A stretch of 64,000 nt of DNA, from contig CAYVZE010000003.1 of the NCBI GenBank assembly GCA_964455685.1, positions 119 to 64,118 on the forward strand, in the 5' to 3' direction. Numbering within the stretch: the first letter of the stretch is position 1; every line of letters begins with the position of its first letter. Source of the DNA: an uncultured Steroidobacteraceae bacterium (GTDB lineage Bacteria; Pseudomonadota; Gammaproteobacteria; Steroidobacterales; Steroidobacteraceae). Position numbers and translations under genes: made by a program. The notes under the pieces were generated by a model that made no database searches, had not been told where the DNA came from, and saw only the letters and a list, made by a program, of their open reading frames with translations. Shown here piece after piece: positions 19,639-60,941 of this stretch.

Positions 19639-19667
19639 AAAATATGTGAGCAGGATCACTATGTCAA
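19639..19667 (-). promoter_or_regulatory. sigma70-like promoter for the small repeat-protein gene
   Basis: The minus strand reads TTGACA (19667..19662), 17 nt, then TATTTT (19644..19639). It lies about 95 nt upstream of ATG 19545. Confidence 0.45.
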
Positions 19668-19691
19668 GGAGATATGTAAAGGCGGATTCTG

Positions 19692-34906: not shown

Positions 34907-34915
34907 TGGAGAACC

Positions 34916-36046: not shown

Positions 36047-36096
36047 TGCCCTGCCGGCAGCAGGCCAAGGAATCCGTTTCGGGAACGAGGGAAGAC

Positions 36097-38480: not shown

Positions 38481-38500
38481 CAGCACGCGGGAACAGTGGC

Positions 38501-42386: not shown

Positions 42387-43257
42387 GCTGATGCGTCCGG
42401 ACAGGATGGTGAGCGTGGCGCTGGTGGCGCCGCTGCTGAAGCTGCGCGGCGTTTCCCGCCAGCTGCGCATCCCGATCCTGATGTACCACGGTATCTCAGA
42501 CGCGCTCGACCGGCAGCGCAGCCCCTACTTCCGTACCGTCACGTCCCCCCGGACCTTTGCGGCGCAGCTGGACGTGCTCGCCGGCGATGCGTTTGAAGTA
42601 GTGTCTCTCACCCAGGCCGTGCGGATGCTGCGCGGCGAGATCCGCTCTCGCGAAGGCGCCACTCCCGTGGTGATCACCTTCGACGACGGCCTGCTCGATT
42701 TCTACACGCAGGCGTTCCCGCTGCTCGAGGCTCGCGGCTTCACGGCTACGGTGTTCCTGGCCAGCGCCTGCGTCGGCGGCACCTTCCCCACCGGAGATCC
42801 GTGCATGAGCTGGGTGCAGGTACGCGAGCTGGCTGACCGCGGCATCGATTTCGGTTCACATTCGATGACCCACTCCCGCCTGGTCGAACTGCCGCTGGAG
42901 GCCCTGGAGCAGGAGCTGTCCCGGTCGAAGTCGGACATCGAGCAGAACCTGGGCCGCAAGGTTACCTCCTTCTCGTATCCATTCCGCTTCCCGGCTGAGG
43001 ATGCCCGCTTCACCGCCCATCTGCATGCCCGGCTCGAGGCGAACGGATACGACCACGGCGTCACGACGATGGTCGGACGTGCCGCTGCAGGCAGCGACCT
43101 GCTGTTCCTGCCCCGGCTGCCGGTCAACGACTGCGATGACGAGGCACTGCTGCGCGCCAAGCTGGCCGGCGCCTACGACTGGTTCGGGCCGGTGCAGGCT
43201 GCGTACAAGAAGATGCGATCGATCGCATCCCCCGCCCGGAGGGCGCAGTCCGCATGA
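42379..43257 (+). CDS. polysaccharide deacetylase (CE4/NodB-like)
   Basis: ILMYHGI, VVITFDDGLLDFY, FGSHSMTHSRL, FSYPF. Confidence 0.8.
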   Translation: MAELMRPDRMVSVALVAPLLKLRGVSRQLRIPILMYHGISDALDRQRSPYFRTVTSPRTFAAQLDVLAGDAFEVVSLTQAVRMLRGEIRSREGATPVVITFDDGLLDFYTQAFPLLEARGFTATVFLASACVGGTFPTGDPCMSWVQVRELADRGIDFGSHSMTHSRLVELPLEALEQELSRSKSDIEQNLGRKVTSFSYPFRFPAEDARFTAHLHARLEANGYDHGVTTMVGRAAAGSDLLFLPRLPVNDCDDEALLRAKLAGAYDWFGPVQAAYKKMRSIASPARRAQSA

Positions 43258-44138: not shown

Positions 44139-46019
44139 ATGTGCGGCATCACCGGAATCCTCCGCACCGATGGCGCCCCGGCCGACCGCGGCCTGGTGGA
44201 ACGGATGACGGCGTGCATCAAGCATCGCGGCCCGGACGGCGCCGGCCTGCACATGGACCGCGAGGTCGGGCTCGGCCATCGCCGCCTGAGCATCATCGAC
44301 CTGGAAGGCGGCTCGCAGCCCATCTTCAACGAGGATTCCACCATCGCCGTCGTCTTCAACGGCGAGATCTACAACTTCGTCGAGCTGCGGCAGGAACTGG
44401 AGCAATGCGGGCACGTGTTCCGTACCAGCTCCGACACCGAAGTGATCGTTCACGGCTACGAACAGTGGGGCACGGACTGCGTCCGCCGCTTCAACGGCAT
44501 GTTTGCGTTTGCAGTCTGGGACAGCCGTCGACGCCGCCTTTTCCTGGCGCGCGACCACCTCGGAGTCAAGCCGCTCTACTACGCCCGGCTGCCGGGCCAG
44601 TTGCTGTTCGCCTCGGAAATCAAGGCGCTGCTCGCCAGCGAGGCCGTTGCCCGCCGCGTCGACACTGAGGCGCTCGGCGAGCTGTTCACCTTCCGCTTCG
44701 TACCTGCCCCACGCACGCTGTTCGACGGCATCCACAAGCTTCCGGCCGGGCACCTGATGGTGGCCGAGGGCGGAAACCTGAAGATCGAGCGGTTCTGGGA
44801 CAGAATTCCCCGCCACCTGCAGGATGCCCGCGAGGAATCGCTGGTGGAGCAGTACCAGGCGCTGGTGCAGGACGCCGTACGCCTGCAGCTGCGCAGCGAC
44901 GTGCCTGTGGGGCTGTTCCTCAGCTCCGGCGTCGACTCCGGCTGCTTGCTGGCCGAGATGCGGCGCCAGTCTGGCGGAGCCATACATACCTTCACCATCG
45001 GCTTCGAGGACGGCGAAAGGACCAACGAAACAGATGACGCCCGGGAAATGGCGCGCCGATTCGGATCCACCCACCACGAGTGGATCATCACGGCGGAGGA
45101 CTACCTGGAGTACTACGACCGCTACCTGTGGGACCTCGAGGAACCGGTCGGCAACGAGACGGCCGCAGCGTTCTACTTCGTAGCGAAGCTCGCCGCCCGG
45201 GAGGTCAAGGTTGCGCTCACCGGCCAGGGCGTGGACGAGCCCTGGGCCGGCTATCACCGGTACCTCGGCCTGAAGATGTCCGATACCTACCAGCGTATCC
45301 CGGCATTGATCCGCAGGGGCCTGATCCGGCCACTGGTGAACGCACTGCCGCGCAATGAGCGGCTCAAGCGCGGCGTCGCGTCACTCGACGAACCGGACAT
45401 CCTCACGCGCTTCGCCAAGATCTATTCGTTCTTCACCGAGGACATGCGACAGTCGCTGTTCCGGGGCGACCGACCGGAACTGGCGGTGCACCAGGGCTAC
45501 AAGGCCAGGCAGGCCATTGCACGCCTGCAGCGCGACGTGACACACCTGGATCCGGTGAGCCAGATGCTGTACATCGACACGCGGGCCAGCCTGCCTGATG
45601 ATCTGCTGATGGTCAGCGACAAGACCTCAATGGCCAACTCCATCGAATCCAGGGTACCGTTCCTCGACTGGCGCATCATCGAGTTCATCGAATCGCTGCC
45701 CCTGGAATTCAAGATCCGCGGCGGCACCGGCAAGTACCTGCACAAGAAGGCCATCGAAGCCTGGCTTCCGCAGGAAATCGTCTATCGCAAGAAGAAGGGC
45801 TTCGCCAACCCGGTGGAGAAGTGGTTGCGCGACCGCATGGCCGCCTACGTGGAGGACTTGCTGTTCGACAGCACATCCGGCGTCCGGGATTTCTTCGACG
45901 TCGGCTACATACGCACCATCATGCGTGAACACCAGGCCGGCCGCGAAAGCTACATGCGGCACATCTATCTGCTCATCTCCTTCGAGATGTGGCACCGCCG
46001 TTTCATCCGGGGTAGCTGA
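44139..46019 (+). CDS. asnB: asparagine synthase (glutamine-hydrolysing) family amidotransferase
   Basis: MCGI N-terminal nucleophile, HRGPD, RRLSIIDL, FNGEIYN, PP-loop LSSGVDS. Confidence 0.9.
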   Translation: MCGITGILRTDGAPADRGLVERMTACIKHRGPDGAGLHMDREVGLGHRRLSIIDLEGGSQPIFNEDSTIAVVFNGEIYNFVELRQELEQCGHVFRTSSDTEVIVHGYEQWGTDCVRRFNGMFAFAVWDSRRRRLFLARDHLGVKPLYYARLPGQLLFASEIKALLASEAVARRVDTEALGELFTFRFVPAPRTLFDGIHKLPAGHLMVAEGGNLKIERFWDRIPRHLQDAREESLVEQYQALVQDAVRLQLRSDVPVGLFLSSGVDSGCLLAEMRRQSGGAIHTFTIGFEDGERTNETDDAREMARRFGSTHHEWIITAEDYLEYYDRYLWDLEEPVGNETAAAFYFVAKLAAREVKVALTGQGVDEPWAGYHRYLGLKMSDTYQRIPALIRRGLIRPLVNALPRNERLKRGVASLDEPDILTRFAKIYSFFTEDMRQSLFRGDRPELAVHQGYKARQAIARLQRDVTHLDPVSQMLYIDTRASLPDDLLMVSDKTSMANSIESRVPFLDWRIIEFIESLPLEFKIRGGTGKYLHKKAIEAWLPQEIVYRKKKGFANPVEKWLRDRMAAYVEDLLFDSTSGVRDFFDVGYIRTIMREHQAGRESYMRHIYLLISFEMWHRRFIRGS

Positions 46020-47029: not shown

Positions 47030-48382
47030 TTACTCGACGCTCAGAGACGGCGCCTTGGGAACGCTGACCGCTGCGGACTTGCCGCCAAACTCGAACGCAC
47101 CGCGATCCCAGGTTCCATCCGAGCCACGGACGGAACCGAACGCGTCGGACATGTAGGGCGTTTCAAGCCTCTCGCCCGGCAGCGGCGCCTTGAGGCGATA
47201 GTCCTTGTCGGCGATCGACACGAAAATGTCGCAGTTCGACGAGCACACCACCTTGCTGCTGGAGTTGTCTCCGTCCTGCTGGGTGTTGTAGTACCAGTTG
47301 CTGCTGTGCACCGAAACGCCCGCAGTACCCAGGCGCGGCGAGTTGTACCAGATATTGCCGCGCGACTCGTTACCCGAGCCTGACTCGATGTGCACGCCAC
47401 CCCAGAGGCCGCGCACGTTGACCAGCGTGTTGTTGTAGAACTTTACGTTGTTCGCCGAATTGCGGTTGCTTGAGTCGTTGGCCACGTACACCACGGCTGC
47501 GACGCCGCTGCCCGATCCTGCGCGCATATTGCGGCCAGTGCGGTAAGTCGGCGTGTGCGTGATCACGTTGCCCTGGATCAGCACGCCCGACCAGGTGCCA
47601 TTGTTCAAGCCTGCCCAGACGGCGGTGCCCTCGATGTCCTCGATGACGTTGTTGACAAACGTCATGTTGGTGACATCGGTGGATGACAGCAATTCGCCAT
47701 GGATGGCATCGGTGCTGGTATTGCGCGCCAGGTAGCACGAGTTGACCACCAGGTTGCGCCAGTTGCCGCGCATCAGGAACAGCGTGCGATCAGTGTCGTG
47801 GATCGCGCAATACTCAAAGGTCATGTTGCTGTTGCCGGCGAGGCCGTAGATGGCATCGTCACCGATGCCGGTATCACGGCCATTGCCCTCTATGTCCACG
47901 TAGCGGAAGGTCACGTTGTTCGCGCCGGAGGACCCGCCGTTGTCCAGGCGCACGGCCCGTCCGCCGGAAGCCTTGATCTTGATGCCGTACTGCGACGTGG
48001 CCCCCTTCCACCAATCCGCGTTGCGGCGCTGGCCGTCGATGATGTAGTAGCCGGTGAGGACCGTGATTTCGCCGAACACCGCCTGGCCTTCGCCATAGGA
48101 GGAGTTCCAGCCCACGTCGCTGCCATGGTCCTCGCTGGTCGCCTTCTTGATGATGATCGGCGTGGTGCCGGAAACGGGATCGTCGAAGGTATAACGACCG
48201 TAGTTCCCGGACGCGAGGTAGTAGGTGTCACCGCGCTTCAGCGTGGCGGGGAGCGATCCCAGGGCATCGCTCCAGCTGGCGCCAGATCCGCTGGAGCCGG
48301 GACGGACGTGCACGTTGGCAGCCGACGCGAACAGCGGAACCAGCAGCAATGCGGTGATCAGGGCGCGAGAGGTTTTTGCCAT
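47030..48382 (-). CDS. secreted right-handed parallel beta-helix protein (candidate polysaccharide lyase/depolymerase or epimerase)
   Basis: Signal peptide MAKTSRALITALLLVPLFASA. Repeated N-rich beta-helix rungs (NNVTFRYVDIEGNG, NSNMTFEYCAIHD, TNMTFVNNVIEDI, VLIQGNVITH, NNVKFYNNTLVNV). Somewhat lower G+C than the neighbours. Confidence 0.6.
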   Translation of the reverse strand: MAKTSRALITALLLVPLFASAANVHVRPGSSGSGASWSDALGSLPATLKRGDTYYLASGNYGRYTFDDPVSGTTPIIIKKATSEDHGSDVGWNSSYGEGQAVFGEITVLTGYYIIDGQRRNADWWKGATSQYGIKIKASGGRAVRLDNGGSSGANNVTFRYVDIEGNGRDTGIGDDAIYGLAGNSNMTFEYCAIHDTDRTLFLMRGNWRNLVVNSCYLARNTSTDAIHGELLSSTDVTNMTFVNNVIEDIEGTAVWAGLNNGTWSGVLIQGNVITHTPTYRTGRNMRAGSGSGVAAVVYVANDSSNRNSANNVKFYNNTLVNVRGLWGGVHIESGSGNESRGNIWYNSPRLGTAGVSVHSSNWYYNTQQDGDNSSSKVVCSSNCDIFVSIADKDYRLKAPLPGERLETPYMSDAFGSVRGSDGTWDRGAFEFGGKSAAVSVPKAPSLSVE

Positions 48383-48604: not shown

Positions 48605-51600
48605 TCAGGGCCTTCCAGGCGCCGCCTCCGAACGCAGGAAGGCGGCAAGTGCAGTCGCCGTCGGGTGTGCGAACAGGTCGGCCACGGCGACGTCAAGCGA
48701 CAGTTCCTGCTTCATGCGAGCCACTGCCATCACCGCCTGCAGTGACGTTCCACCCAGCTGGAAAAAGTCCTCGTCCGCTTCGACGGAAGGCCGCTTGAGC
48801 ACGGCAGCGAAGACGCCGCGCAGGTCGGTCACGAGGGAATCCCCGGGGCCGCCCGCTTCAACAGCCGCCCCCGCGGCGCGTGGCAGCTGGCCCGAGGAAA
48901 TCAAGGCGACCAGGCGCTCGACCTGCGCAGCCAGCGCATCCACGCGCGCGTGCAGAGACTGCATGTCCGCAGGGGCCTCGACAGCGGGCCGAGGCACCGC
49001 CGGCGGGGCAACCACCGCCTTCGGTTCCGCCGTCTGCCGCGTGGCGCCGGCCGGCCGCCAGTCCGGCGCAAGGCGTTCGTCCAGCCACGCAGCCAGCGCC
49101 GACGGCGTAGGTACATCACCGGCAAGCATCAGGAAGCTCACCTGCTGCTGGAACTCCTCCCGCAGCGCACGACTGATGCGCGTGAGGAACAGCGAGTCGA
49201 AGCCAAGCTCGGGGAAAGACCTGTCGGCGGGCAGCTCCGCTGCCGACATGCCTGACAAGTCCGCCAGTACTGCAAGGATGCGCTCGAGGATGAGATCGCG
49301 CCGGTTGCCGCCCGCAGGTAACTCAGCAGGTGCGGGAACGGACGACACCTGCTGCTGCACGACTACCGGAAGGTCGGCAGGCGCGGCTGCAGGCAGCGGG
49401 ATGACGTTCGACCCACGCTGCGAAGATGCCTGCGAGGCGTCGACGAAGCAGCGACGCCGCTCAAACGGATAGGTCGGCAGCGCCACAATGCGCCGCGCGA
49501 AGCCGGCATGGAACTGCCTCCAGTCAGGCTTCACGCCTGCCACCCACAACTGTCCCATGCCATCGAGCACGGCTTCCAGCTCGGGGCGCTGACGCGCCAG
49601 CGCGCCAAGCGTGGGCACGGCCGCAACGAGGTTGTTCTTCGCAGGGTGCTGGCGTGCAAGCTGCGTCAGAACCTGCCCCGGCCCCACCTCCAGGCACACC
49701 ATGCGGCCTTTGCCAAGCAGGGTGTGGAAGGCATTCTCGAGCTGGACGGGCTTGCGCACCTGCTGCGGCCAGTAGGCGGGGTCCGTGGCCTCGGCTGAGG
49801 TCATCCAGTCACCGGTGCAGGTGGAAACCCACGGCAGCTGCGGCGCCGTGCGCTCGACGGACTGGGCAGTGCGCAGGAACTCGTCGAGCATCGGCTCCAT
49901 CATCGAGGAATGGAACGCATGCGAGGTGCGCAGCAGCTTCGTGTCGACACCTTCCGCCTCAAGCCTTGACTGGAAATCCTTCACCAGCGGCGTCGGTCCT
50001 GACACGATGCATTGCTGGCTGCCATTGAACGCAGCAATGTCCAGGCCGCCAGGCAGGCGATCCTGCAGCTGTCCGGGTGCCATGCGCACTGCCATCATCG
50101 ATCCGGCGGGAAGAGCCTGCATCAGCGTGGCGCGGCGGGCAAGCAGCCGCAGCGCATCTTCCAGCGTGAAGGTCCCGGCCAGCACGGCACACACGTACTC
50201 GCCGATGCTGTGACCGAGCAGCGTCGCAGGCTTGATGCCCCAGGACATCCACAGTCGCGCCAGTGCGTACTCGGTAACGAAGATGGCAGGCTGCGCGTAC
50301 CCGGTCTGGTCTATCTCTGTCGCGATCGCGCTGTCCGCAGGGACGTCCGCGTACAGCACCTCGCGGATGTCACGCCCCAGATGCCCCAGCAGGATGCCGG
50401 CGCACTCATCGACGACCTGGCGGTACACCGGTTCGGACGCATAAAGCTGGCGCCCCATGCCGGTGTACTGGGCTCCCTGGCCGGGGAAGATGAATGCCAC
50501 GCCCGATGCAGCCTCGGCGGGGGCCGTGGTTGCACTGCGCTCCCTCAGCCGGGTCACCGCTGCGCGCACGTCGGACGCTACCACGTATCGCCTGCACGGG
50601 AAGGCCTTCCGGCCGCGCTGCAGGGTGAACGCCACGTCAGCCAGCGGCGGGGCGCCCAGGGCTGCCTTCGCCTCAAGCCAGTCCGCCAGGTTGTGCGACA
50701 TCCGCTCCAGAGCCTCTGGTGTGCGTGCCGACAGTACCAGCAGCTCGCTGCCGCGGGATGCCGTATCGCAAGCCTGCTCGGGCGGCTCCTCCAGGACCAG
50801 GTGCACGTTGGTGCCGCCCACGCCCAGCGAATTGACGGCCGCCCGGCGCGGCGATTCACCACGCCCCCAGGCAACGAGCTTCGACACGACGCGGAACGGC
50901 GAACTGGCGAAGTTGATGGCCGGGTTCGGCTTGTTGAAGTGGGCTGTCGGGGGGATCTGCTTCCGCGACAAGGCCAACGCGGTCTTGATCAGTGACGCCA
51001 CGCCGGCGGCCGCTTCCAGGTGACCCACATTGCCCTTCAGCGAACCGATCCAGCAGTAGCCGGTGGCATTGGTGTAGCGGCGGTAAGCCTGGGTGAAGGC
51101 TGCGATCTCGATCGGGTCACCAAGTCGGGTAGCCGTGCCATGCGCTTCGACGTAACTGATCGTTTCCGGTGGGAACCCTGACATCTCCAGCGCGCGCTGG
51201 ATCGCATCTGCCTGCCCGGACACGCTGGGAGCGGTGAATCCGGCCTTGTCGTCGCCGTCATTGTTGATGCCGATACCATGAATGACGGCCAGGATGTTGT
51301 CGCCGTCACGCTGGGCATCGGAAAGCCGCTTGAGCATCACCACGCCGGCGCCACTGCTGAACACGGTTCCGGTGGCATCGGCGTCGAACGGCCTGCAGTA
51401 GCCGTCCGACGAGGTCATTGCATACTGCTGGGCCACGTAGTCGCGCTTCTGCGGGAACGTGATCGAGACGCCGCCGGCCAGCGCCATGTCGCACTCTCCC
51501 CGCTGCAGGCTGGCACAAGCCTGGGCCACCGCAGCCAGCGAGGTGGAACAGGCGGTCTGTACGGTCACCGCCGGGCCGCGCAGGCCGAACTTGTGCGCGA

Positions 51601-54600
51601 CGCGCGTGGTCAGGTAATCCTTGTCGTTGCCCAGGACCACCGGCCAGCCATCGAACTGGTACTGCGCCGCGATGGCCGCTGCGCCACCCGGACTGGCAGC
51701 CAGGTGGTAAAGAAGGTAGGTGTTGAAGCTGCTGCCGCCAAAGACGCCTATGGCTTGCGGGCAGCTCTCGGGATCATAGCCGGAGGACTCCAGCGCCTCC
51801 CAGGCGCATTCGAGGAACACGCGCGCCTGGGGATCCATCACGCTGGCTTCGGCAGGAGTGAACCCGAAGAAGGCCGGGTCGAACTGGTCCACGCCTTCCA
51901 GGATGCCGCGCGCGCGCACCAGTCCCTGCTGGTCGGGCAACGGGCACTCGCTCTCCTCCCGCGTGAAGCGGGTGATGGTGTCACGGCCGCTGACGAGGTT
52001 GTCCCAGAACTCCTCGACGCTGGTGGCGCCAGGGAACCTGCCAGCCGCACCGATGATCGCGATCGGCTCGAAGCCGGCAGCCTGCCTGCGCTCAAGCACC
52101 GCGGGCTCCCGAGCCTGCGACTGCACACGATCCGCGTCGGAGGACAGGTGACGGGCCAGGGTACGGATGGTGCTGTGCTGGAAGAAATCGGTGATATGGG
52201 GTTCCTTGCCGATCACCTCCAGCAGCTTCTGCTGCATTTCCACCAGTTGCAGCGAGTTGGCGCCGATGTCGAAGAAGCGATCGTCGATACCGACCCGGTC
52301 GATCTGCAGGATCTCGCACCACAGCCGCTCCATGGTGCGCTCCAGCTCCGTACCAGGAGCCTCGTAGGGCTGCGGCAGGTCCGGTCGCTTGCGGATCGGC
52401 GCCGGGAGAGCCTTGCGATCGACCTTGCCGTTCGGCGTCAGCGGCAGTTCGTCCAGTACCATGAACGCCGCCGGGATCATGTAGTCAGGGAGGCTCTTCG
52501 CCGCAAGGGCCTTGAGTTCCGGCACCAGATCGCGCACCGCAACAGAACGCAGAGGGTTGTTCACAAGCGCCTTCAGGTCGCGCCCGTGCCGGGCCTGGCT
52601 GCCGCTGCCCGACCACGCCAGCGGCGCACCGCCCCCCTTTCGTTCGAACAGCACGTCGAAGTAGCCGGGCTCTTCGCTCCAGTCGACGCGAACTTCGCAA
52701 CCCACCTTTTCGGCCAGATCCCAGAAAGCGTCCGGTTCCAGCCCGCCTGCTGCCGCTTCCTGCTGCAGCTCGCGCAACGATCGAAGATCCTGGGCACTCC
52801 CCTTCGTCAACGCGGCCGCGACCGCGAGGTCGCCAAGCAGCCTTGCATTAGGCACGTCCCGGACACAGAACGCGGCCGGCTGCTCAGAAAGGATCGCCTG
52901 GACCTGGTCGAGGTCCAGACCGTCGCGTTTCCAGTTCCGCTCGACCAGCCCGGCCGGCGGTGTGGCCTCAGTCCCGACATGCAGGACCGCGTCGTACCGG
53001 TAGCATGTCAGCTCGTTATGGCAGGGACTGCGTTTGAGCTGGACAGACGCGCCCGTGATCCGACCGATATGGGCCGGCAGGAGGTGGAAGAACGCCGGAT
53101 CGACCAGCAGTTCCTCTTCCTCCTTGCAATTGCGTTCCACCTGCGCGCGCAGGTCAGCGACGGACATCGATTCCGGTGCCTGGAACAATCCGACGGAAGC
53201 ATGGAAAGATTCCAGCAGGCCGTGGTGGCGCACGTCGCCGACGAAGATCTTCCCGCCATCGGTGATGAGCCGTGCCGCGCGCTCCAGCACCGTCCGCAGG
53301 TAGTCAACGCCGGTGAAGTACTGGATGACCGAGTTGATGATGACCGTGTCGAAGCTCCCCTCCGGCAGGTCAAGGAGGTCATCCGCGGTCTTCTTCAGCA
53401 GCTCGACATTCGACCAGTCGCCGGGAAGCCGGGCAAGCCGCTGCCGGAGCTGGTCGATGGCGACACCAGAGAAATCCAGGCCCACATAGTGCTCGCACAC
53501 CGGCGCTACCCGCGTGACGATCAGGCCGGTGCCACAGCCGATCTCCAGCACGCGCCGCGGCTTGAGCGCCTTGATCCGCCCAACGATGGAGTCCAGCCAG
53601 TCGCGCATCTCCTGGCGCGGCAGGGGCTCGCGCGTGTAACTGCTGATCCAGACAGTGAAGTCCTCGTCAGGCAGCTGTTCGGCTCGGGTGTAGTGGGCGT
53701 ACAGCTCGTCGTGGATGCGCTGCCAGTCCTTGACCTGCTCTTCGCCGTCGTGCGCGTCGCCAGCATCCTCTCCGCCAGATTTCGGGACCACGTACGCAGC
53801 CAGGTACTTCACGCCCGGCACGTCCTCCCTGGCCGTGACCACGGCCTGCGCGACACCCGGGTGGCCGGCCAGGACAGTTTCGATTTCTCCCAGTTCGATG
53901 CGATAGCCGCGCACCTTCACCTGATGGTCGATGCGACCGAGGCACTCCAGCGTGTTGTCGGCGTGGATGCGCGCCAGGTCACCGGTCCGGTACAACCGGC
54001 CATCCCCGAACGGATTTGGGATGAACTTCTCAGCGGTCAGCTCGGGCCTGTTGAGGTAACCACGCGCCAGGCCGTCGCCGCCAATCAGCAGCTCGCCGAC
54101 CTCTCCCGCCGGCAACAGGTCCATCGTCTCGCTGACGATGTAGACCTGCGTATTGGCAATGGGTCGGCCGATGCTCATGAAGGACGCACCCTCGGTCACC
54201 TTGCCGCACGTGGACCAGATCGTCGCCTCCGTGGGCCCGTACATGTTCCAGAGCTCATGGCACCGCGGCAGAAGCTGCGCGGCGAGGTCCTTCTGCAGCG
54301 GTTCGCCGCCGCACAGGATCCGCAGCCGAGGATGCCCCTTCCAGCCGGCCGCCAGCAGCAGCCGCCATGAGGAAGGCGTCGCCTGCATCATCGTGGCGCC
54401 ATGGTAGTCGAGGAGGCGGATGAGTTCCTTGCCGTCGATGGCGGCCTGGCGCGGGACGATGACGACCCTTGCGCCAGTCACCAAGGGCAGGAAGATCTCC
54501 AGCGCCGCGATGTCGAACGACAAGGTCGTGACGGCCAGCAGTACGTCACCTTCGCCAATTCCCGGCTCACGCTGCATCGACTGCAGGAAGTTGACCAGCG

Positions 54601-55174
54601 CATGATGGGGAATCTGCACGCCCTTCGGCCGTCCGGTCGAGCCGGAGGTGAAGATCACGTACGCCAGGTCCTGAGGCCCGACATCCATGGGCTGCTGCAA
54701 CGGGGCGTACCGGGCCGTCTCGCCGTCATCGACGCACACCACGGCAGCCTGGTGCGGCGGCAGGCTTCCCAGCAGGCTCTTCTGGGCGACCATCACGGGC
54801 ATGCCCGCGTCCTCGATCATCCACGCCAGGCGCTCAGTTGGGAATGCCGGGTCCATGGGCACGTAGGCCCCGCCGCACTTGAGCACGGCGAACATGGCCG
54901 CCACCATGTCGCAGGAGCGCTCCACGAAAATGCCCACGAGAGAGCCGCGCTGCACCCCGGCCTCGCGCAACCTGGCGGCAAGCCGGGAAGCGCGCTCCTC
55001 GAGCCCGGCGTAGGTCAGGGATTCATCGCCGCATACCAAGGCCACTGACGCGGGATTCCGCGCCGCCTGCGAGGCGAACAGTTCGTGGACAAACCGGGCG
55101 GGGACTGGATCGGCGGGGCCTTCCAGCACGCTCAATTCCGGTGCAGGGATGCTTTCCGAGGATCCGCTCTTCAC
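48605..55174 (-). CDS. hybrid NRPS-PKS: A(interrupted by methyltransferase)-T-KS-AT-ACP-T, 2189 aa
   Basis: GTG 55174. A domain about 53780..55102 (LTYAGLEE, FTSGSTGRPKG, NMYGPTE, GELLIGGDGLARGY, YRTGDL, VKVRGYRIELGEIE) with A10 PNGKVDRKAL after the insert. SAM methyltransferase about 52565..53737 (VLEIGCGTG). T1 about 52145..52357 (DIGANS). KS about 50780..52072 (TACSTS with the Cys codon at 51548..51550, EAHGTAT, GNVGHLE). AT about 49535..50503 (GQGAQY, GHSIGE with the Ser codon at 50207..50209, HAFH). ACP about 49079..49303 (LGFDS). T2 about 48629..48841 (LGGTS). Confidence 0.9.
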   Translation of the reverse strand: MKSGSSESIPAPELSVLEGPADPVPARFVHELFASQAARNPASVALVCGDESLTYAGLEERASRLAARLREAGVQRGSLVGIFVERSCDMVAAMFAVLKCGGAYVPMDPAFPTERLAWMIEDAGMPVMVAQKSLLGSLPPHQAAVVCVDDGETARYAPLQQPMDVGPQDLAYVIFTSGSTGRPKGVQIPHHALVNFLQSMQREPGIGEGDVLLAVTTLSFDIAALEIFLPLVTGARVVIVPRQAAIDGKELIRLLDYHGATMMQATPSSWRLLLAAGWKGHPRLRILCGGEPLQKDLAAQLLPRCHELWNMYGPTEATIWSTCGKVTEGASFMSIGRPIANTQVYIVSETMDLLPAGEVGELLIGGDGLARGYLNRPELTAEKFIPNPFGDGRLYRTGDLARIHADNTLECLGRIDHQVKVRGYRIELGEIETVLAGHPGVAQAVVTAREDVPGVKYLAAYVVPKSGGEDAGDAHDGEEQVKDWQRIHDELYAHYTRAEQLPDEDFTVWISSYTREPLPRQEMRDWLDSIVGRIKALKPRRVLEIGCGTGLIVTRVAPVCEHYVGLDFSGVAIDQLRQRLARLPGDWSNVELLKKTADDLLDLPEGSFDTVIINSVIQYFTGVDYLRTVLERAARLITDGGKIFVGDVRHHGLLESFHASVGLFQAPESMSVADLRAQVERNCKEEEELLVDPAFFHLLPAHIGRITGASVQLKRSPCHNELTCYRYDAVLHVGTEATPPAGLVERNWKRDGLDLDQVQAILSEQPAAFCVRDVPNARLLGDLAVAAALTKGSAQDLRSLRELQQEAAAGGLEPDAFWDLAEKVGCEVRVDWSEEPGYFDVLFERKGGGAPLAWSGSGSQARHGRDLKALVNNPLRSVAVRDLVPELKALAAKSLPDYMIPAAFMVLDELPLTPNGKVDRKALPAPIRKRPDLPQPYEAPGTELERTMERLWCEILQIDRVGIDDRFFDIGANSLQLVEMQQKLLEVIGKEPHITDFFQHSTIRTLARHLSSDADRVQSQAREPAVLERRQAAGFEPIAIIGAAGRFPGATSVEEFWDNLVSGRDTITRFTREESECPLPDQQGLVRARGILEGVDQFDPAFFGFTPAEASVMDPQARVFLECAWEALESSGYDPESCPQAIGVFGGSSFNTYLLYHLAASPGGAAAIAAQYQFDGWPVVLGNDKDYLTTRVAHKFGLRGPAVTVQTACSTSLAAVAQACASLQRGECDMALAGGVSITFPQKRDYVAQQYAMTSSDGYCRPFDADATGTVFSSGAGVVMLKRLSDAQRDGDNILAVIHGIGINNDGDDKAGFTAPSVSGQADAIQRALEMSGFPPETISYVEAHGTATRLGDPIEIAAFTQAYRRYTNATGYCWIGSLKGNVGHLEAAAGVASLIKTALALSRKQIPPTAHFNKPNPAINFASSPFRVVSKLVAWGRGESPRRAAVNSLGVGGTNVHLVLEEPPEQACDTASRGSELLVLSARTPEALERMSHNLADWLEAKAALGAPPLADVAFTLQRGRKAFPCRRYVVASDVRAAVTRLRERSATTAPAEAASGVAFIFPGQGAQYTGMGRQLYASEPVYRQVVDECAGILLGHLGRDIREVLYADVPADSAIATEIDQTGYAQPAIFVTEYALARLWMSWGIKPATLLGHSIGEYVCAVLAGTFTLEDALRLLARRATLMQALPAGSMMAVRMAPGQLQDRLPGGLDIAAFNGSQQCIVSGPTPLVKDFQSRLEAEGVDTKLLRTSHAFHSSMMEPMLDEFLRTAQSVERTAPQLPWVSTCTGDWMTSAEATDPAYWPQQVRKPVQLENAFHTLLGKGRMVCLEVGPGQVLTQLARQHPAKNNLVAAVPTLGALARQRPELEAVLDGMGQLWVAGVKPDWRQFHAGFARRIVALPTYPFERRRCFVDASQASSQRGSNVIPLPAAAPADLPVVVQQQVSSVPAPAELPAGGNRRDLILERILAVLADLSGMSAAELPADRSFPELGFDSLFLTRISRALREEFQQQVSFLMLAGDVPTPSALAAWLDERLAPDWRPAGATRQTAEPKAVVAPPAVPRPAVEAPADMQSLHARVDALAAQVERLVALISSGQLPRAAGAAVEAGGPGDSLVTDLRGVFAAVLKRPSVEADEDFFQLGGTSLQAVMAVARMKQELSLDVAVADLFAHPTATALAAFLRSEAAPGRP

Positions 55175-55213
55175 TTCAATGACTCCAGATCGATGCCCCT
55201 GCAGGAACGTCCC

Positions 55214-55864
55214 TCATGCCGGCCCGGAGACCTTGCCGTAGGGCATGGCAGGATTGCCGAACACCTTGGTGGCCGGCGGGACTTCCTCAAGCACCACGCT
55301 GCCGGCCCCCACGAAAACGCGCTCATGGATGGTGATTCTAGGCACGACAACGGCCCCCAGGCCGAGGAAGACACTGTCCCCGATGGTCACATTGCCCCCC
55401 AGGGAGATGTGCGCGGTCAGCTGGCAGAACGCACCGATCCTGACGTCGTGGCTGACCTCCGTGTAGGTGCCGATCGACGTGTATTCACCGATCGAGGCCT
55501 CCGGCCCCACTGTGACGAAGGGTCCGATGGTTACGCCGGCCGCCAGCGTTGCGCGGCGCGACACCAGCGCCCTGGGGTGGACCAGCGTCGTGAATTGCGC
55601 TCCGCGGGCACGCAGCATCTCCACGTACCGGCGCCGCGGCTCGATGTCGCCGATGGAGCAGAAGAAACGGTCGTTCGGCCGGGGTTCGTAGGTCTCGGCC
55701 GGCCCCAGGATGGGCTCCTCGTAGCCGAACTGCTTCAGGATGCCGGGACGATCGTCCAGGAAACCCTTCACCCGCCAGGGCGCGCCATCCTCGATGGCGT
55801 CATACACCCACCCCAGCAGCTCCCGACCGAACTTTCCTGCACTGATGATTACCAGATCGTACAT
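55214..55864 (-). CDS. NeuD/PglD-family sugar acyltransferase (N-terminal Rossmann-like domain plus hexapeptide beta-helix)
   Basis: MYDLVIISAGKFGREL, FFCSIGDIEPRRRY, TLVHPRALVS, then hexapeptide repeats (IGEYTSIGTYTEV, IGAFCQLTAHISLGGNVTIGDSVFLGLGAVV). Lies 39 nt upstream of the NRPS-PKS on the same strand. Confidence 0.7.
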   Translation of the reverse strand: MYDLVIISAGKFGRELLGWVYDAIEDGAPWRVKGFLDDRPGILKQFGYEEPILGPAETYEPRPNDRFFCSIGDIEPRRRYVEMLRARGAQFTTLVHPRALVSRRATLAAGVTIGPFVTVGPEASIGEYTSIGTYTEVSHDVRIGAFCQLTAHISLGGNVTIGDSVFLGLGAVVVPRITIHERVFVGAGSVVLEEVPPATKVFGNPAMPYGKVSGPA

Positions 55865-56218: not shown

Positions 56219-57223
56219 ATGACTTCGCCCGTAGTCAGCGTGCACATGATTACGTACAACCATGCGCCGTACATCCGCGAGGCCATCGAGAGTGTACTGG
56301 CCCAGCAGACGGACTTTCCGTTCGAGCTCGTGATCGGCGAGGACCATTCGCCCGACAACACCCTGGCGATCGTCTGCGAGTACCAGCAGCGGCATCCTGA
56401 CATCATCCGCGTGATCACTTCGGACCAGAACGTGGGCATGGCGAGAAACGCCAGGCGCACGTTCGAAGCCTGCACGGGCAAGTACATCGCCTACTGCGAG
56501 GGCGATGACTACTGGAATACCCCGCTGAAGCTGCAGAAGCAGGTGGACTTCCTCGAAGCCAACCCCTCCTGCTCACTGGTGTGTTCCGACTACGACATCC
56601 TGTTCGAGGATACCGGGCGCCGGCTGACCTTCATCAACCGGCAGAACAACCTGCAGCCGGGGAAGATCGACCAGATCAAGAGCATCATCCGCGGCACCCC
56701 GAGCAGCGGGATCCTGACCTGCACCGTGATGGCGCGCCGGGACCTGGTGGCGCTGGCAGTAGAGCGCAACCCCGCGATGCTCGGGGGCGATACACCGCAG
56801 CCCTGCGGGGATACGCCCACCTGGGCGGGCCTGTTCGTCGAAGGGCGGATCGGCTACATCGACGAGTCCCTGGCCACCTACCGGAGGATCGACGTTTCCG
56901 CCACTCGCAATCCATCCAAGGCTGCGCTGCTGCGCACGAGCATCGCAATGAAGCGCCAGATGCTGGAAATGGCGGAAATGTACAACGTGGACGAGACCGA
57001 GAAGTCACTCCACCGTCTGGACCTGAACAAGCGCCTGCTGCGGCTGGCCTATTTCGAGAGGGATGCGGCGCTTGCGCGCGAGGCATTCGACGCCCTCACG
57101 TCCAGGACGCTGTTGGACCGCGTACTCCTTTTCGGCGCGGGCAGCAACGCCCTGCACACGCTCGTTCGCCCCTGGGTGGGGCTGTTCGCGCGGCCCCTGA
57201 TCCCGACAACCGAGAAGCCCTGA
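56219..57223 (+). CDS. GT2 glycosyltransferase
   Basis: ATG after GGGAGG. VSVHMITYNHAPYI, IGEDHSPDNT, CEGDDYW (DxD-like). Confidence 0.8.
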   Translation: MTSPVVSVHMITYNHAPYIREAIESVLAQQTDFPFELVIGEDHSPDNTLAIVCEYQQRHPDIIRVITSDQNVGMARNARRTFEACTGKYIAYCEGDDYWNTPLKLQKQVDFLEANPSCSLVCSDYDILFEDTGRRLTFINRQNNLQPGKIDQIKSIIRGTPSSGILTCTVMARRDLVALAVERNPAMLGGDTPQPCGDTPTWAGLFVEGRIGYIDESLATYRRIDVSATRNPSKAALLRTSIAMKRQMLEMAEMYNVDETEKSLHRLDLNKRLLRLAYFERDAALAREAFDALTSRTLLDRVLLFGAGSNALHTLVRPWVGLFARPLIPTTEKP

Positions 57224-57237: not shown

Positions 57238-59043
57238 TCAGCCGTTCCGGCCGCCACGGAGCGCCAGTTCGCGGAATTCCGGGCTCTTCTCGAGCAGCTC
57301 CGCATACGTGCCCTGTTCCAGCACGCGGCCGTTGCCCATGAAGAAGATGTTGGAGCAATCCATGACCGTGGTGAGCCGGTGGGCGACAACGATGATGGTC
57401 TTGGTGCCGGCAATGTTGCGCAGCGCCTCCATCACCGCCCGCTCCGTCAAGTTGTCCAGCGCGCTGGTGGCCTCGTCGAAGACCAGCACGTCCGGGTCGC
57501 GGTAAAGGGCGCGCGCAATGCCGATCCTCTGCCGCTGGCCACCCGACAGCCGGATGCCACGCTCCCCAACCATGGTCTGGTAGCCCTCGGCCATCTCCCG
57601 CGTGACGAAGTCATGCAGCTCCGCGGCGCGCGCGGCTCTCTCCACCCGCGCCATGTCGATGTTCTGCGGATCCTCGCCGAAGGCGATATTGGCCGCGACC
57701 GTGTCGTCGAGCAGAAAGATCTGTTGCGGAACGTAGCCCACCGACTTCTGCCAGGCAATGCGGTTGGCCTCGGTCACCTCGACGCCATCGACCAGCAGTC
57801 TGCCGGAATCAGGCCGCAACAGGCCCAAGATGACGTCGATCGTGGTGGTCTTGCCCGCACCGGATCCGCCCACGATGCCCACCATGGAGTTGGCGTGGAT
57901 CTGCATGTCGACACCCTGCAGGGCGGGACGGGGAGCCTCCGGGAAGCGGAAGTGGATTTCCCTGAGCTCCAGCAGTTGCTTCAGCGGCAGAGCCGGGGTG
58001 TCGACCTGCGGCCCGAGGTCGCCTCTGACCTCCACAATCTGCTCATGCAGGTTCTCCAGCGCCGACTTGCCGAACCGCAGCTGGGTAAAATCGCGATAGA
58101 CCTGCTGCAGGGCCGGGAACAGGCGGATGCCCGCGAATGCGAACAGGCCAAGCGTGGGCACCGCGTCGTCGAGGCCCTCGCTGCCGTGACCGAGGAGGTA
58201 GATCACGAAGCCGAGCATGCCGCCGAAGGCGATGGCCTCCAGCACGTAGCGTGGGATCTGCCCGATGGAGAATGCGAACGACTGGGTTCGGGCGAACATC
58301 TCGGCCGAAATACCGTAGCGCCGCGCGTAGCTGTGCTCCAGCGACATCAGCTTGACCTCCTTGATGCCGGAGAACGCCTCGTTGGCAAGCTTGTACCGCT
58401 CAGCGTTGGCATCAACGCGCTTCTCACCAACCCTCGCAAGGGTACCTCGCACGGCTCCGTAGATGAGGACATAGGTGCCGGCGAAGAGCATTACCGCCAG
58501 CAGCATCACCAGCGGCTCAAGGGCCAGCAGCAGGGCCGCCAGCGCAATCGCCACGCTGGCGTGCGCCAGCAGCTCCAGGCCCGGGATCATGCACGTGTGG
58601 ATGACCTGATCGACCTCTGACAGGATCGACTTTCCGAGGTCGGCGCTGTGCCGGTGCAGGAACCAGGCGTAATCCTTGGCGATGTAGCCGCGAAACAACC
58701 GGTTCGAGATCGAGTAGTTGCGCATCGTACTGAAGCGGATCAGCACGAACTGCGTCACTGCCTTGAATGCCAGGCCCACCACCACAACCAGGAACACGCC
58801 CACGCCGACCCACATCAAGAACGTGCGGTCGTCCGGGGCGCCCGTGGTGTCGTACGCCCAGGACAGGATCCGGTTCTCGTGGATGTAGGTCGGGTCTGCC
58901 AGCACCGACAGGAACGGCAGCACGGCCGCCACGCCGATGACATCGAGCAAGCCCATCGCGATGATCATCACCACGAGCAGTGCAAACTGCCGCTTCTCGC
59001 CGCGATCGAGGAGGCCAAGGAGTTTCCGGTACAGTTCGATCAC
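57238..59043 (-). CDS. fused TMD-NBD ABC exporter (MsbA/PglK-like half transporter)
   Basis: GTG 59043. Six N-terminal TM helices. Walker A GGSGAGKTT, signature LSGGQRQRIGIARAL, Walker B VLVFDEATSALD. Confidence 0.85.
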   Translation of the reverse strand: MIELYRKLLGLLDRGEKRQFALLVVMIIAMGLLDVIGVAAVLPFLSVLADPTYIHENRILSWAYDTTGAPDDRTFLMWVGVGVFLVVVVGLAFKAVTQFVLIRFSTMRNYSISNRLFRGYIAKDYAWFLHRHSADLGKSILSEVDQVIHTCMIPGLELLAHASVAIALAALLLALEPLVMLLAVMLFAGTYVLIYGAVRGTLARVGEKRVDANAERYKLANEAFSGIKEVKLMSLEHSYARRYGISAEMFARTQSFAFSIGQIPRYVLEAIAFGGMLGFVIYLLGHGSEGLDDAVPTLGLFAFAGIRLFPALQQVYRDFTQLRFGKSALENLHEQIVEVRGDLGPQVDTPALPLKQLLELREIHFRFPEAPRPALQGVDMQIHANSMVGIVGGSGAGKTTTIDVILGLLRPDSGRLLVDGVEVTEANRIAWQKSVGYVPQQIFLLDDTVAANIAFGEDPQNIDMARVERAARAAELHDFVTREMAEGYQTMVGERGIRLSGGQRQRIGIARALYRDPDVLVFDEATSALDNLTERAVMEALRNIAGTKTIIVVAHRLTTVMDCSNIFFMGNGRVLEQGTYAELLEKSPEFRELALRGGRNG

Positions 59044-59046: not shown

Positions 59047-59832
59047 CTATTCGTAACCCAGTTTCACGGCAATGTCGCGGCCGTTTGAATGCCCTGGCTG
59101 CTGCCGCGTGCCGGCTGCCGCACCGGCGCGCAGCAGCCGGCCCAGGCGCGTGCTTGCGCGGTGGCGCCAGAGCGGCAGGCCCGTACGCGTCAGCGCCACC
59201 ACCGTGGTCGGAATGGGCAAGCGCTTGCGCCACTTGCGGCGCATGTAATCGTAAGCCCGTGTATACGCGCCCGCGAGGCTCCGCACGCGCCGGCTGTTGT
59301 GCACCACGGGATCATGGACCGCGAATGCCCCCAGGCCGCGCTCCAGGCTGGTTTGTGCGATATCGGTACCGTACAGGTGGAACCCCGGCAGCGCCTCGTC
59401 GAAACGCAGGCCGCTGCGGCCGTTGACCACCAGCACCAGCTCGTCGGCAGACACGATCGGCACGGGTTCAGCAAAAGGACCGCCCAGCTCCCTCTGCAGG
59501 CCGCTCGACCAGCAGTGCCCGACGTGCGTGCCGTCTGCGCGCACACCATAGACGCCCAGCATGCCCCAGGCGCCGTGCGTCGCCTCGATGCGCGCGATGT
59601 GCGCGTGCAGGCGCCCGACCCAGCCCGCCGGCAGGTATACGTCCTGGTGGGCGAACACCAGCACATCCGCGCCGGCCATGTCGGCGCCCCGGTTGTAGGC
59701 AATGGCAGCGGACGGTTGCGCGCGCATTTCCACCAGCCTGACCGAGCCAAGGTCAGGCGACAGGCGAAGGTTCTCCGCCAGGATGGTCTCGTCGTTGACC
59801 GCCGCGACGATGGTCGTGGTCCTGCCTTCCAT
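59047..59832 (-). CDS. putative GT-A-fold glycosyltransferase-like protein
   Basis: VLVFAHQDVYLP and FDEALPGFHLYGTDI resemble a GT2-like subfamily as recalled. This is a weak assignment. It is tightly packed between the aminotransferase and the ABC exporter. Confidence 0.45.
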   Translation of the reverse strand: MEGRTTTIVAAVNDETILAENLRLSPDLGSVRLVEMRAQPSAAIAYNRGADMAGADVLVFAHQDVYLPAGWVGRLHAHIARIEATHGAWGMLGVYGVRADGTHVGHCWSSGLQRELGGPFAEPVPIVSADELVLVVNGRSGLRFDEALPGFHLYGTDIAQTSLERGLGAFAVHDPVVHNSRRVRSLAGAYTRAYDYMRRKWRKRLPIPTTVVALTRTGLPLWRHRASTRLGRLLRAGAAAGTRQQPGHSNGRDIAVKLGYE

Positions 59833-60941
59833 CAGGGCCGCGCTATCGCGTCGGTCACGCGAATGACGTCCGCGTCGGACATGTCCGGGTAGATCGGCAG
59901 GCAGATCACGCGATCGGCCACGTCATTGGCCACCGGCAGGTTGTCCTTCCGGGCCGACGGCAGCCCGCGATACATCGGGAAGCTCGAGATCAGAGGATAG
60001 AAGTAGCGACGGCAGTGTATACCCCGCTCCCCCATCCGTGCGTACAGGTCGTCGCGCGAGAGCGGGTAGTCCTTCTCCACCAGGATCGGGAAATACGCAA
60101 AGTTGTCCGCCGACTGCTTTCCGCGCCGGACAGGCTTGATGCCGGGCACATCTGCGAGCCTCTCGCGGTACAGCGAGTCGATTTGCGCCCTCCGCTCGAT
60201 GACCTGGCCGATGTACTTCAGCTGCAGCAGTCCAAGGGCGGCCGAGAACTCGTGCATCTTGCCGTTGATGCCGGTGGCCACGACGGTGGCCTCATCGACG
60301 AAGCCGAAGTTCTTCAGGTGGTCGATGTGCTGCTTTGCGCGCGCGTTGCGGCAGGCAATCGCACCACCCTCGAAGGTATTGAATACCTTGGTGGCATGGA
60401 AACTCAGGACCGACAGGTCGCCGTAGTCCAGAATACTCTTGCCGCCGTACTCCACCCCGAAGGCATGCGCGGCGTCATAAATGACCTTCAGGTTGTAGTT
60501 GTCGGCGATTCGCTGGATCGCATCCACGTCACAGGGATTGCCGTAGCAGTGTACGGGCATGATGGCCGTGGTCTGCGGCGTGATGGCTGCCTCGATCTTG
60601 TCCGGGTCGAGGTTCAGTGTCTCCGGCTCGATGTCGACGAACACGGGCTTGATGCCATTCCAGAGCAGCGAGTGCGCCGTAGCCACGAACGAGTAAGGGG
60701 TCGTGATCACCTCGCCAACCACGCGCAGGGCCTGCAGGGCAGATACAAGCGCGATGGTGGCGTTGGTGAACAGCGCCAGGTGCCTTACCCCGAGGTGCTC
60801 GCAAAGGGCTTTCTCGAGCTGCTCGTGGAAAGGCCCGTTGTTGGTGAGGATCCGTCGCTCCCAGATCTCCTCAAGGTAAGGCACGAGCTCCTGCAACGGG
60901 GGCAGGAAGGGCCTGGTGACGTACATCCTTTCGTCTTTCAT
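59832..60941 (-). CDS. DegT/DnrJ/EryC1/StrS-family PLP sugar aminotransferase (second copy, PglE/WecE-like)
   Basis: VITTPYSFVATA, IMPVHCYGNPCD, YDAAHAFG, SFHATKVFNTFEGG (PLP lysine), GINGKMHEFSAALG. Confidence 0.85.
   Translation of the reverse strand: MKDERMYVTRPFLPPLQELVPYLEEIWERRILTNNGPFHEQLEKALCEHLGVRHLALFTNATIALVSALQALRVVGEVITTPYSFVATAHSLLWNGIKPVFVDIEPETLNLDPDKIEAAITPQTTAIMPVHCYGNPCDVDAIQRIADNYNLKVIYDAAHAFGVEYGGKSILDYGDLSVLSFHATKVFNTFEGGAIACRNARAKQHIDHLKNFGFVDEATVVATGINGKMHEFSAALGLLQLKYIGQVIERRAQIDSLYRERLADVPGIKPVRRGKQSADNFAYFPILVEKDYPLSRDDLYARMGERGIHCRRYFYPLISSFPMYRGLPSARKDNLPVANDVADRVICLPIYPDMSDADVIRVTDAIARP

Follow-up and report, generated by a model that had tools for sequence, protein, structure and literature searches.

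We describe a pair of adjacent minus-strand genes (48605..55864) in a 64,000-nucleotide stretch of contig CAYVZE010000003.1 from an uncultured Steroidobacteraceae bacterium, hereafter "the window". A gene for a NeuD-like acyltransferase of 216 amino acids (aa; 55214..55864) is followed, after 39 nt, by a gene for a 2189-aa hybrid nonribosomal peptide synthetase–polyketide synthase (NRPS-PKS; 48605..55174). We consider it probable that the pair forms a carrier-protein-dependent glycan N-acylation module, which would place an acyl group on a nucleoside diphosphate (NDP)-amino sugar bound for a Wzy-type exopolysaccharide. In the mechanism that we propose, the adenylation (A) domain would activate glycine, as its specificity code suggests, and load it on the first carrier (T1); the embedded methyltransferase (MT) would, judging from the architecture, N-methylate the glycyl group to sarcosyl-S-T1; the acyltransferase (AT) domain would load malonyl on T2 and/or T3; and the ketosynthase (KS), having intact residues and no reducing domains beside it, would perform one decarboxylative condensation to 4-(methylamino)-3-oxobutanoyl-S-carrier. 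The adjacent VioB/PerB-like β-helix acyltransferase would then release the chain from T2 or T3 by passing it to the amine of an NDP-amino sugar. The likeliest acceptor is an NDP-4-amino-4,6-dideoxyhexose from the DesI-like aminotransferase DegT2, and the acylated sugar would enter the repeat unit of the exopolysaccharide before export. The whole would be the type-I assembly-line counterpart of the pathway built from β-ketoacyl-ACP synthase III (KAS III), acyl carrier protein (ACP), ketoreductase (KR), VioB and VioA, with an interchangeable acyl-building part.

The synthase gene starts at a GTG with GGAG 8 nt before it, and both open reading frames (ORFs) have third-position GC values (GC3) of 0.82–0.83, typical of real genes in this window of 64–72% GC. 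The first-pass annotation, made from the letters alone, had read the protein as A(MT)-T-KS-AT-ACP-T with every carrier serine and every KS and AT catalytic residue in place, had seen no condensation (C), KR, dehydratase (DH), enoylreductase (ER), thioesterase (TE) or reductase (R) domain, and had put the gene 39 nt behind a co-directional NeuD/PglD-family gene. The ORF coordinates, the translation and searches of both proteins against the Pfam and NCBIfam profile libraries bear this out: the order is A(N-MT)-T-KS-AT-T-T, and no match to Condensation, KR, DH, ER, Thioesterase or reductase profiles was found in the megasynthase. Furthermore, neither the megasynthase nor any neighbour has a Pfam match to a chain-release domain (TE, R or terminal C).

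The glycine-type adenylation core (aa ~26–470, 53765..55099) matches TIGR01733 with 442 bits and the AMP-binding family (PF00501, E 1e-90) at aa 33–374, while AMP-binding_C is split into two stretches. Between A8 ([20 protein letters not shown]) and A9/A10 lies a SAM-dependent methyltransferase, predicted to act on the backbone nitrogen (aa ~500–720, 53015..53677); it gives a class-I match over aa ~520–655, with Methyltransf_12/25/11 at 542–655, and its motifs are intact (SAM motif VLEIGCGTG at 542, plus NELTCYRYDAV). The C-terminal part of the A domain (A9/A10, LPDYMIP...PNGKVDRK; aa ~880–925, 52400..52537) is the second AMP-binding_C stretch and aligns with A10 of LgrA and GrsA. T1 follows (Ser974; aa ~940–1010, 52145..52357), one of three PP-binding stretches. 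The ketosynthase (aa 1036–1413, 50936..52069; PF00109 and PF02801) matches ketoacyl-synt at 1036–1287 and Ketoacyl-synt_C at 1295–1413, together with the KS-AT linker, and has Cys1209 in TACS, His1345 in HGTAT and His1385 in GHLE; the KS domains closest to it come from hybrid NRPS-PKS proteins. The AT domain (Acyl_transf_1, PF00698, E 5e-52; aa 1561–1882, 49529..50494) carries GHSIGE at 1654 (Ser1656) and HAFH at 1752–1755. HAFH and GHS[non-Q]GE are established marks of the malonyl-CoA type. T2 (an ACP; aa ~1965–2035, 49070..49282) has Ser1994 in GFDS, and T3, which resembles a peptidyl carrier protein and is the best PP-binding stretch (aa 2118–2180, 48635..48823), has Ser2144 in GGTS. The A core motifs, carrier serines, KS Cys-His-His triad and AT GHSxG that define a hybrid NRPS-PKS are thus all present.

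The ten specificity positions of the A domain, which the first-pass annotation had left to an alignment with GrsA, were extracted in this way, after the GrsA reference had been verified residue by residue against PDB 1AMU. The code is DILQLGMIWK (GrsA/1AMU numbering), a signature reported for glycine-activating domains (PMC12283262). The top PDB match, LgrA, was considered as further evidence for glycine and dropped because its Val and Gly modules score equally (303 and 306 bits). Residues 29–924 match the interrupted, N-methylating domain TioS A4-M4 over one continuous stretch (PDB 5WMM, E 9.5e-138); there, as in the sarcosine modules of actinomycin synthesis and in the window, an M domain interrupts the sequence after A8 and before A9. 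The SAM motif of the window domain is intact, as the TioS type requires. The TioS and actinomycin modules lie within peptide assembly lines with C domains, whereas the window module is a loading module that feeds a KS. Glycine and N-methylation give sarcosine in actinomycin. An amino acid that is adenylated, methylated and extended by one malonyl unit, as first suggested from the domain order, fits the domain set. Given a glycine code, an N-MT, a malonyl-type AT and an intact KS without reducing domains, one would expect the carrier to end up with a 4-(methylamino)-3-oxobutanoyl thioester, which no domain of the protein itself could reduce or release. The TE would be missing because the NeuD-like enzyme takes the chain from T2 or T3 and so releases it.

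The candidate off-loading enzyme belongs to the NeuD/VioB/PerB family of left-handed β-helix sugar N-acyltransferases. It passes the TIGR03570 NeuD/PglB/VioB model (182 bits, cut-off 160.8) and PglD_N (PF17836) at residues 3–84 (30.2 bits, cut-off 23.4), and has Hexapep in four stretches. Its best PDB matches are PerB (4EA7, E 2e-23, 86 bits), VioB (7TXP) and PglD; His139 aligns with the catalytic His141 of PerB, the position marked by the H141N mutant chain 4EAA, and is invariant in 14 clade members. The clade of the window protein has N-terminal motifs of its own, SAGKxGRE and W[RK]xKGFLD. The nearest solved relatives act on GDP-perosamine, dTDP-viosamine and UDP-bacillosamine, all of them 4-amino-4,6-dideoxy sugars, and PerB, VioB and PglD (4EA7, 7TXP, 3BSY) share the nucleotide-sugar N-domain, the left-handed β-helix and the catalytic histidine with the window protein. 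These enzymes take acetyl-CoA, whereas members of the window clade have carrier proteins as genomic neighbours and in some cases as fusion partners. That the fold can use an acyl-ACP is clear from LpxA and LpxD, β-helix acyltransferases that move acyl groups from a carrier protein onto a UDP-sugar. They form another subfamily, without PglD_N and with fatty acyl donors from primary metabolism, and the matches of the window protein to their curated models, though significant, stay below the cut-offs (LpxD, 90 bits, cut-off 242.5; LpxA, 72 bits, cut-off 226); it may work like LpxA and LpxD though not a member. For the NeuD-like enzyme, gene neighbourhoods and fusions speak for a donor bound to a carrier.

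The same NeuD protein, identical in sequence, was found on 65 contigs, and in 10 of the 10 inspected the same 2189-aa synthase stands next to it in the same locus. The nearest NeuD homologues, at 52–61% identity, all abut either A-T/KS-AT-T or MT-T/KS-AT-T synthases, in loci with DegT, Wzx, and EpsH or EpsI. Locus L061 (NeuD 61% identical) has the order DegT, Wzx, NeuD, an MT-T protein and then a KS. L014, with two NeuD genes (59% and 57%), reads PglK-like ABC transporter, divergent GT2, NeuD, MT-T, KS-AT-T-T, NeuD and an A domain, the last 64% identical to the window A domain with the code DILQLGMVW- and ending at the contig edge. In a JGI 3300056388 contig (NeuD 57%) EpsI and DegT are followed by a 1721-aa A..KS-AT protein and two NeuD genes. 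L015 (NeuD 52%) has NeuD, A-T and KS-AT-T, then a GDSL protein, the exosortase EpsH and a phosphopantetheinyl transferase (PPTase); the carrier of its A-T protein is 55% identical to T1, and the single T of its KS-AT-T aligns with T2. T3 is not universal, being found in the KS-AT-T-T of L014 and missing from L015. The A-domain code of L015, DVWHISLVDK, resembles DVWHLSLIDK, which we take to be a serine signature.

L014 (1991..7420) and L061 (3256..6309) contain a second kind of NeuD-linked synthase, without an A domain, in which a UbiE-like methyltransferase is fused to a carrier (MT-T, 420–431 aa) ahead of KS-AT-T-T. In the GTDB genomes of a Pirellulaceae member (L039, 15850..17600) and a Cyclobacteriaceae member (L060, 15850..19290), NRPS-type A-T proteins, with an A domain 47% identical to that of the window, have a NeuD-like or DegT gene a few kb away and may be further amino-acid-loading variants.

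At identities of 52% or less the partner changes to a discrete cassette of AMP-ligase, ACP, KAS III, ACP, KR, NeuD and DegT. Examples are L016 and GTDB genomes from Roseateles, Chitinophagaceae, Verrucomicrobiota, Bryobacterales and Planctomycetota; the best match in the GTDB scan with NeuD was 50% identical. The adjacency of NeuD and synthase thus recurs across phyla, with differing synthase architectures and A-domain codes.

A neighbourhood survey, which had been proposed as a check on the first reading, was made as a tblastn census of the 38 clade loci with usable flanks, within 8 kb of NeuD, in which small ACPs are under-detected. NeuD co-occurs with carrier-linked acyl-building genes: an AMP-ligase, carrier, KS or KAS III lies within 8 kb in 28 of the 38 loci and, by a hand count of the same table, acyl-building genes are found in 22 of the 25 loci whose NeuD is at least 40% identical. 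DegT is present in 21/38, a C domain in 1/38 and a TE in none of the 38.

Covalent linkage occurs as well. P0183 and P0241 are T-NeuD fusions, and a full HMMER search with P0183 brought up more fusions, which fall into clusters of their own at 50% identity. By Pfam, P0243 has the full series AMP-binding/PP-binding/PglD_N/Hexapep, i.e., A-T-NeuD, of which P0242 and P0254 are truncated versions. Without a gap over 210 aa, the window NeuD is 41% identical to the acyltransferase parts of P0243 and P0241 (181–191 bits, vs 86 bits for PerB). Other partners were also seen in the clade: P0274 has an ATP-grasp (PylC-like) domain fused to NeuD, P0380 joins a Rieske oxygenase with a hexapeptide domain, and L106 (10967..11434) has, beside a 50% identical NeuD homologue, a fragment that by eye resembles an ATP-grasp N-terminus. 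These may be further ways to supply or tailor the acyl group.

Seen from the synthase, the pattern is less clear-cut than from the acyltransferase. Once the identical cluster is set aside, the best full-length matches, at 41–46% identity, are to segments of larger NRPS-PKS proteins that also have C and TE domains. P0002 from Polyangium spumosum, A(MT)-T-C-A(MT)-T-KS-AT-T-TE, is 42–46% identical to the window synthase over A(MT)-T-KS-AT-T, in the same domain order; its neighbours are kinases and regulators rather than glycan genes. Canonical hybrids of this sort carry C and TE and lie outside glycan loci without NeuD or DegT neighbours, unlike the window synthase. A motif-based metagenome scan with the megasynthase gave 40 loci, all of them generic NRPS/PKS with C and/or TE at no more than 55% segment identity, and a NeuD gene in 0/40; these are paralogues found through common motifs and not a refutation. 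The first-pass annotation had named orthologues outside glycan loci, with TE or C partners, as the observation that would speak against it, and this description fits only paralogues of 37–46% identity, not the one 64% identical orthologue found, in L014. Co-diversification of KS with NeuD was looked for and rejected: identities to the window KS are 56–60% for NeuD-linked KS domains and up to 61% for generic hybrids, and a neighbour-joining tree of 135 hybrid KS domains has no NeuD-linked clade (0/100 bootstraps). As the NeuD-linked KS domains are not monophyletic, the association is not one co-inherited unit, and the synthases seem to have been recruited repeatedly. In our reading, the conserved core would be the acyltransferase clade with DegT, to which differing carrier-based acyl-building machineries have been attached again and again, and the window synthase would be one recruit from ordinary NRPS-PKS stock.

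A rival reading is that the two genes are merely coincidental neighbours, with an acetyl-CoA-dependent NeuD serving DegT and a synthase making an unrelated small molecule that leaves as self-released 1-methylpyrrolidine-2,4-dione (N-methyl tetramic acid) or through an unlinked hydrolase. We regard such a coincidence as unlikely, though it has several points in its favour. All solved members of the family (PerB, VioB and PglD) are acetyl-CoA enzymes; the nearest full-length synthase relatives are ordinary C/TE hybrids outside glycan loci; and the KS phylogeny has no co-diversification with NeuD. γ-Amino-β-keto thioesters can lactamise spontaneously to tetramic acids by established chemistry, and the predicted product is of this kind, so it could plausibly release itself as a γ-lactam with no need of a transferase. 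Points against an N-acylation module are, besides this lactamisation, the lack of KS co-diversification and the use of acetyl-CoA by the solved family members, that T1 has the motif GANS, with an unusual Asn before Ser974 in place of the usual G(G)DS or GGHS; that no sugar 4,6-dehydratase or PPTase gene lies within the 64-kb window; that the census has no control set of unrelated NeuD-family loci; and that the support for this organism comes from sequence and comparative genomics.

Against coincidence, however, argue the recurrence of the adjacency across phyla with differing architectures and codes, the existence of T-NeuD and A-T-NeuD fusions, and the absence of a TE from all 38 clade loci. 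A separate WbpD-like acetyltransferase already accompanies the other aminotransferase of the locus, DegT1, and there is genetic precedent for a VioB acting with ACP and KAS III (PMC3927599). The hand-off of the chain to the neighbouring acyltransferase, which the first-pass annotation had offered as an attractive route, is supported by the linkage in 10 of 10 contigs, by the close homologues, by the census and by the fusions.

The pair lies in an exopolysaccharide locus of about 33 kb, from ~31.3 kb to the window end, so that the ~30-kb glycan neighbourhood with two DegT aminotransferases first noticed in the letters is essentially right. To the left of it are unrelated genes (AcrB, LysR, acyl-CoA dehydrogenase, pilMNOPQ, aroK, mrcA); the synteny of mrcA, pilMNOPQ and aroK, with a GC of 66–70%, points to a proteobacterium. 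Glycan building is represented by five GT2 and one GT4 glycosyltransferase, a Bac_transf priming transferase and a Wzy-like protein; these are joined by a PglK-like ABC transporter, a tyrosine autokinase, a chain-length protein, the two DegT aminotransferases, a WbpB/WbpD-like pair, a pyruvyl transferase with an FrhB-like partner, an AsnB-like amidotransferase, a deacetylase and a secreted β-helix protein, with a Poly_export gene just past the window end. No flagellar genes are found in the locus.

DegT2 (59832..60941, minus strand; PF01041, E 3e-105), the proposed supplier of the amino sugar, is a DegT/DesI-type sugar 4-aminotransferase whose best NCBIfam matches are DesI-type (298 bits) and PseC. 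Being DesI-like, it probably acts on 4-keto-6-deoxy sugars, and in L022 and L024 a 68% identical homologue is part of the cassette with AMP-ligase, ACP, KAS III, KR and NeuD. As the window holds no 4,6-dehydratase, the 4-amino-4,6-dideoxyhexose is a candidate acceptor.

This last point leaves some room for a route in which the product decorates a glycan by other means: on a glucosamine amine exposed by a deacetylase, in the manner of NodA/NodB/NodFE, or on a lipid or protein anchor, or else with the acyl group N,N-dimethylated, reduced by an unlinked reductase, or amidated by the AsnB-like enzyme. The deacetylase (Polysacc_deac_1, NodB-type; 42379..43257) and the AsnB-like amidotransferase (44139..46019) are both in the locus, a dehydratase that could make the 4-keto sugar is not in the window, and for PKS genes of capsule loci (RkpA, WcbR) a role in making lipid parts has been proposed. 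The NeuD-like protein, on the other hand, has PglD_N and resembles acyltransferases of NDP-4-amino sugars, DegT accompanies the clade in 21 of the 38 loci, and the 68% identical homologues of DegT2 noted above sit in carrier cassettes. We therefore give these other routes a small chance, a little below that of coincidence.

Least probable of all, and in our view quite improbable, is that the NeuD-like enzyme acts on the assembly line itself, e.g., by N-acetylating the carrier-bound (methyl)aminoacyl group and so blocking lactamisation. A free γ-amine on a thioester is indeed unstable, and butirosin biosynthesis protects its amine with a protecting group. Many clade members, however, go with AMP-ligase/KAS III/KR cassettes, and the 3-hydroxybutanoyl group of the matching viosamine island (see below) has no amine to cap; the co-occurrence with DegT and the nucleotide-binding N-domain point to a sugar as the substrate.

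The divergent GT2 glycosyltransferase (56219..57223, plus strand; PF00535) is, speculatively, a candidate transferase for the acylated sugar, and L014 has a 334-aa GT2 at the same divergent position. Next to it, a fused ABC transporter of the PglK/MsbA kind (57238..59043, minus strand; best NCBIfam match PglK with 318 bits, under the cut-off) is a candidate flippase for a lipid-linked oligosaccharide; L014 has an 84% identical fragment at the same position. Downstream of the synthase, co-directional and after a 222-nt gap, lies the gene of the secreted β-helix protein (450 aa, glycanase-like; 47030..48382, minus strand), which has a signal-peptide-like N-terminus and, on strain variants, a weak Beta_helix annotation; the protein has no Pfam or NCBIfam match and no PEP-CTERM motif. 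No promoter-like sites were found in 46.9–57.4 kb, and terminator-like sites are fewer there than in shuffles, which is uninformative on operon structure.

Several proteins of the locus resemble XrtA/PEP-CTERM-associated families, all under the curated cut-offs: the tyrosine autokinase reaches 219 bits against TIGR03018 (cut-off 230.65), the amidotransferase 578 bits against TIGR03108 (cut-off 817), and the outer-membrane protein match is weak. No exosortase gene lies in the window; related loci carry exosortase-type genes, EpsH in L015 and EpsI in the JGI contig.

A second amino-sugar module (32998..37212), with a 159-aa hexapeptide transferase, DegT1 and a GFO_IDH_MocA oxidoreductase, presumably resembles the WbpD/WbpE/WbpB route to 2,3-diacetamido sugars; having no carrier-protein neighbours, it is an internal contrast to the NeuD/DegT2 pair. 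It is followed at 37209..39784 by the polysaccharide pyruvyl transferase and the FrhB/FdhB-like Fe-S protein, and in L013 an FrhB-like gene also stands behind a T-NeuD fusion. Outside the locus, between acyl-CoA ligase and HD-domain genes, an island of low GC (17429..20597; 55–62% vs 66–72% around it) contains a 30-bp tandem repeat in 4.6 copies (19252..19390) and, on the minus strand, three ORFs (268, 265 and 301 aa), and may be a foreign insertion; no tRNA genes were found in the window.

Taken further, the comparison of clade members suggests a widespread and so far unrecognised plug-and-play family, to which we give even odds. One VioB/PerB-like clade would release acyl groups from AMP-ligase-T proteins, KAS III/ACP/KR sets or NRPS-PKS, and the window version would yield an N-(4-methylamino-3-oxobutanoyl) amino sugar with a cationic side chain. 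The predicted decoration would be an acyl group of +113.05 Da with a secondary amine on an amino sugar of the exopolysaccharide. With this group an exopolysaccharide in the environment would become partly cationic or zwitterionic, from which we would expect effects on flocculation, adhesion and phage or immune recognition. If the mechanism is right, it is a new way of off-loading assembly-line synthases, in which an NRPS-PKS chain can end on a nucleotide sugar, through a left-handed β-helix acyltransferase, instead of by hydrolysis, cyclisation or reduction, and it would open a new class of peptide–polyketide–polysaccharide hybrids. The clade motifs together with the variable partners (Gly- or Ser-loading A domains, MT-T, KAS III cassettes and A-T-NeuD) would offer a route to non-acetyl N-acyl sugars, and NeuD-linked synthases should then not be counted as orphan small-molecule clusters.

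Among known systems, Vibrio cholerae O1 has an AMP-ligase (RfbL) and a carrier protein (RfbK) that are linked to tetronate-acylated perosamine (PMC12208996, citing Morona et al. 1995; PMC3441752). The likeness is that an AMP-ligase and a dedicated carrier, encoded in an O-antigen locus, give a non-acetyl N-acyl group on a 4-amino-4,6-dideoxyhexose; the ketosynthase extension, amino-acid starter and megasynthase of the window have no counterpart in that pathway. In the open-access literature we found no account that couples an NRPS-PKS with an enzyme of the NeuD type or with exosortase loci, and the NRPS-PKS form of carrier-dependent sugar N-acylation, with an amino-acid donor and in an exopolysaccharide locus, appears undescribed.

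The closest precedent, which the first-pass annotation had omitted from its list and which lowers the novelty of the window system, is the viosamine island of Pseudomonas syringae pv. tabaci, with vioA, vioS (KAS III), acp, vioR (KR), vioB, vioM and vioT (PMC3927599). It makes dTDP-N-(3-hydroxy-1-oxobutyl)-2-O-methylviosamine for the flagellin glycan, with N-acetoacetylviosamine as a proposed intermediate; mutants in vioA, vioB, vioR and vioT lack the sugar, and homologues occur in the flagellin glycosylation island of P. aeruginosa PAK (PMC3927599). As this island is published, the carrier-dependent principle is known. Many distant members of the window NeuD clade, likened by gene content, have its KAS III/ACP/KR set.

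Island and window share a DegT aminotransferase, a NeuD/VioB acyltransferase, a dedicated carrier and a ketosynthase that builds (in the window, by prediction) a β-keto acyl unit destined for the nitrogen of a 4-amino-4,6-dideoxyhexose: DegT2 is in the window locus, and the VioB-type gene stands 39 nt upstream of the gene for a protein with three PP-binding stretches. They differ in that the island has discrete KAS III, ACP and KR proteins and an acetyl starter, whereas the window has a fused type-I NRPS-PKS with a predicted N-methylated amino acid starter and no ketoreductase; neither a gene nor a domain for a discrete KAS III (VioS) or a 3-oxoacyl-ACP reductase (VioR) is found in the window, where a type-I KS-AT stands instead. 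The island, moreover, targets flagellin, and the window locus is of the Wzy-type exopolysaccharide kind. With these two features of the island (the discrete KAS III/KR and the flagellin target) departed from, the window system is best regarded as a variant of the viosamine-island kind rather than a member of it.

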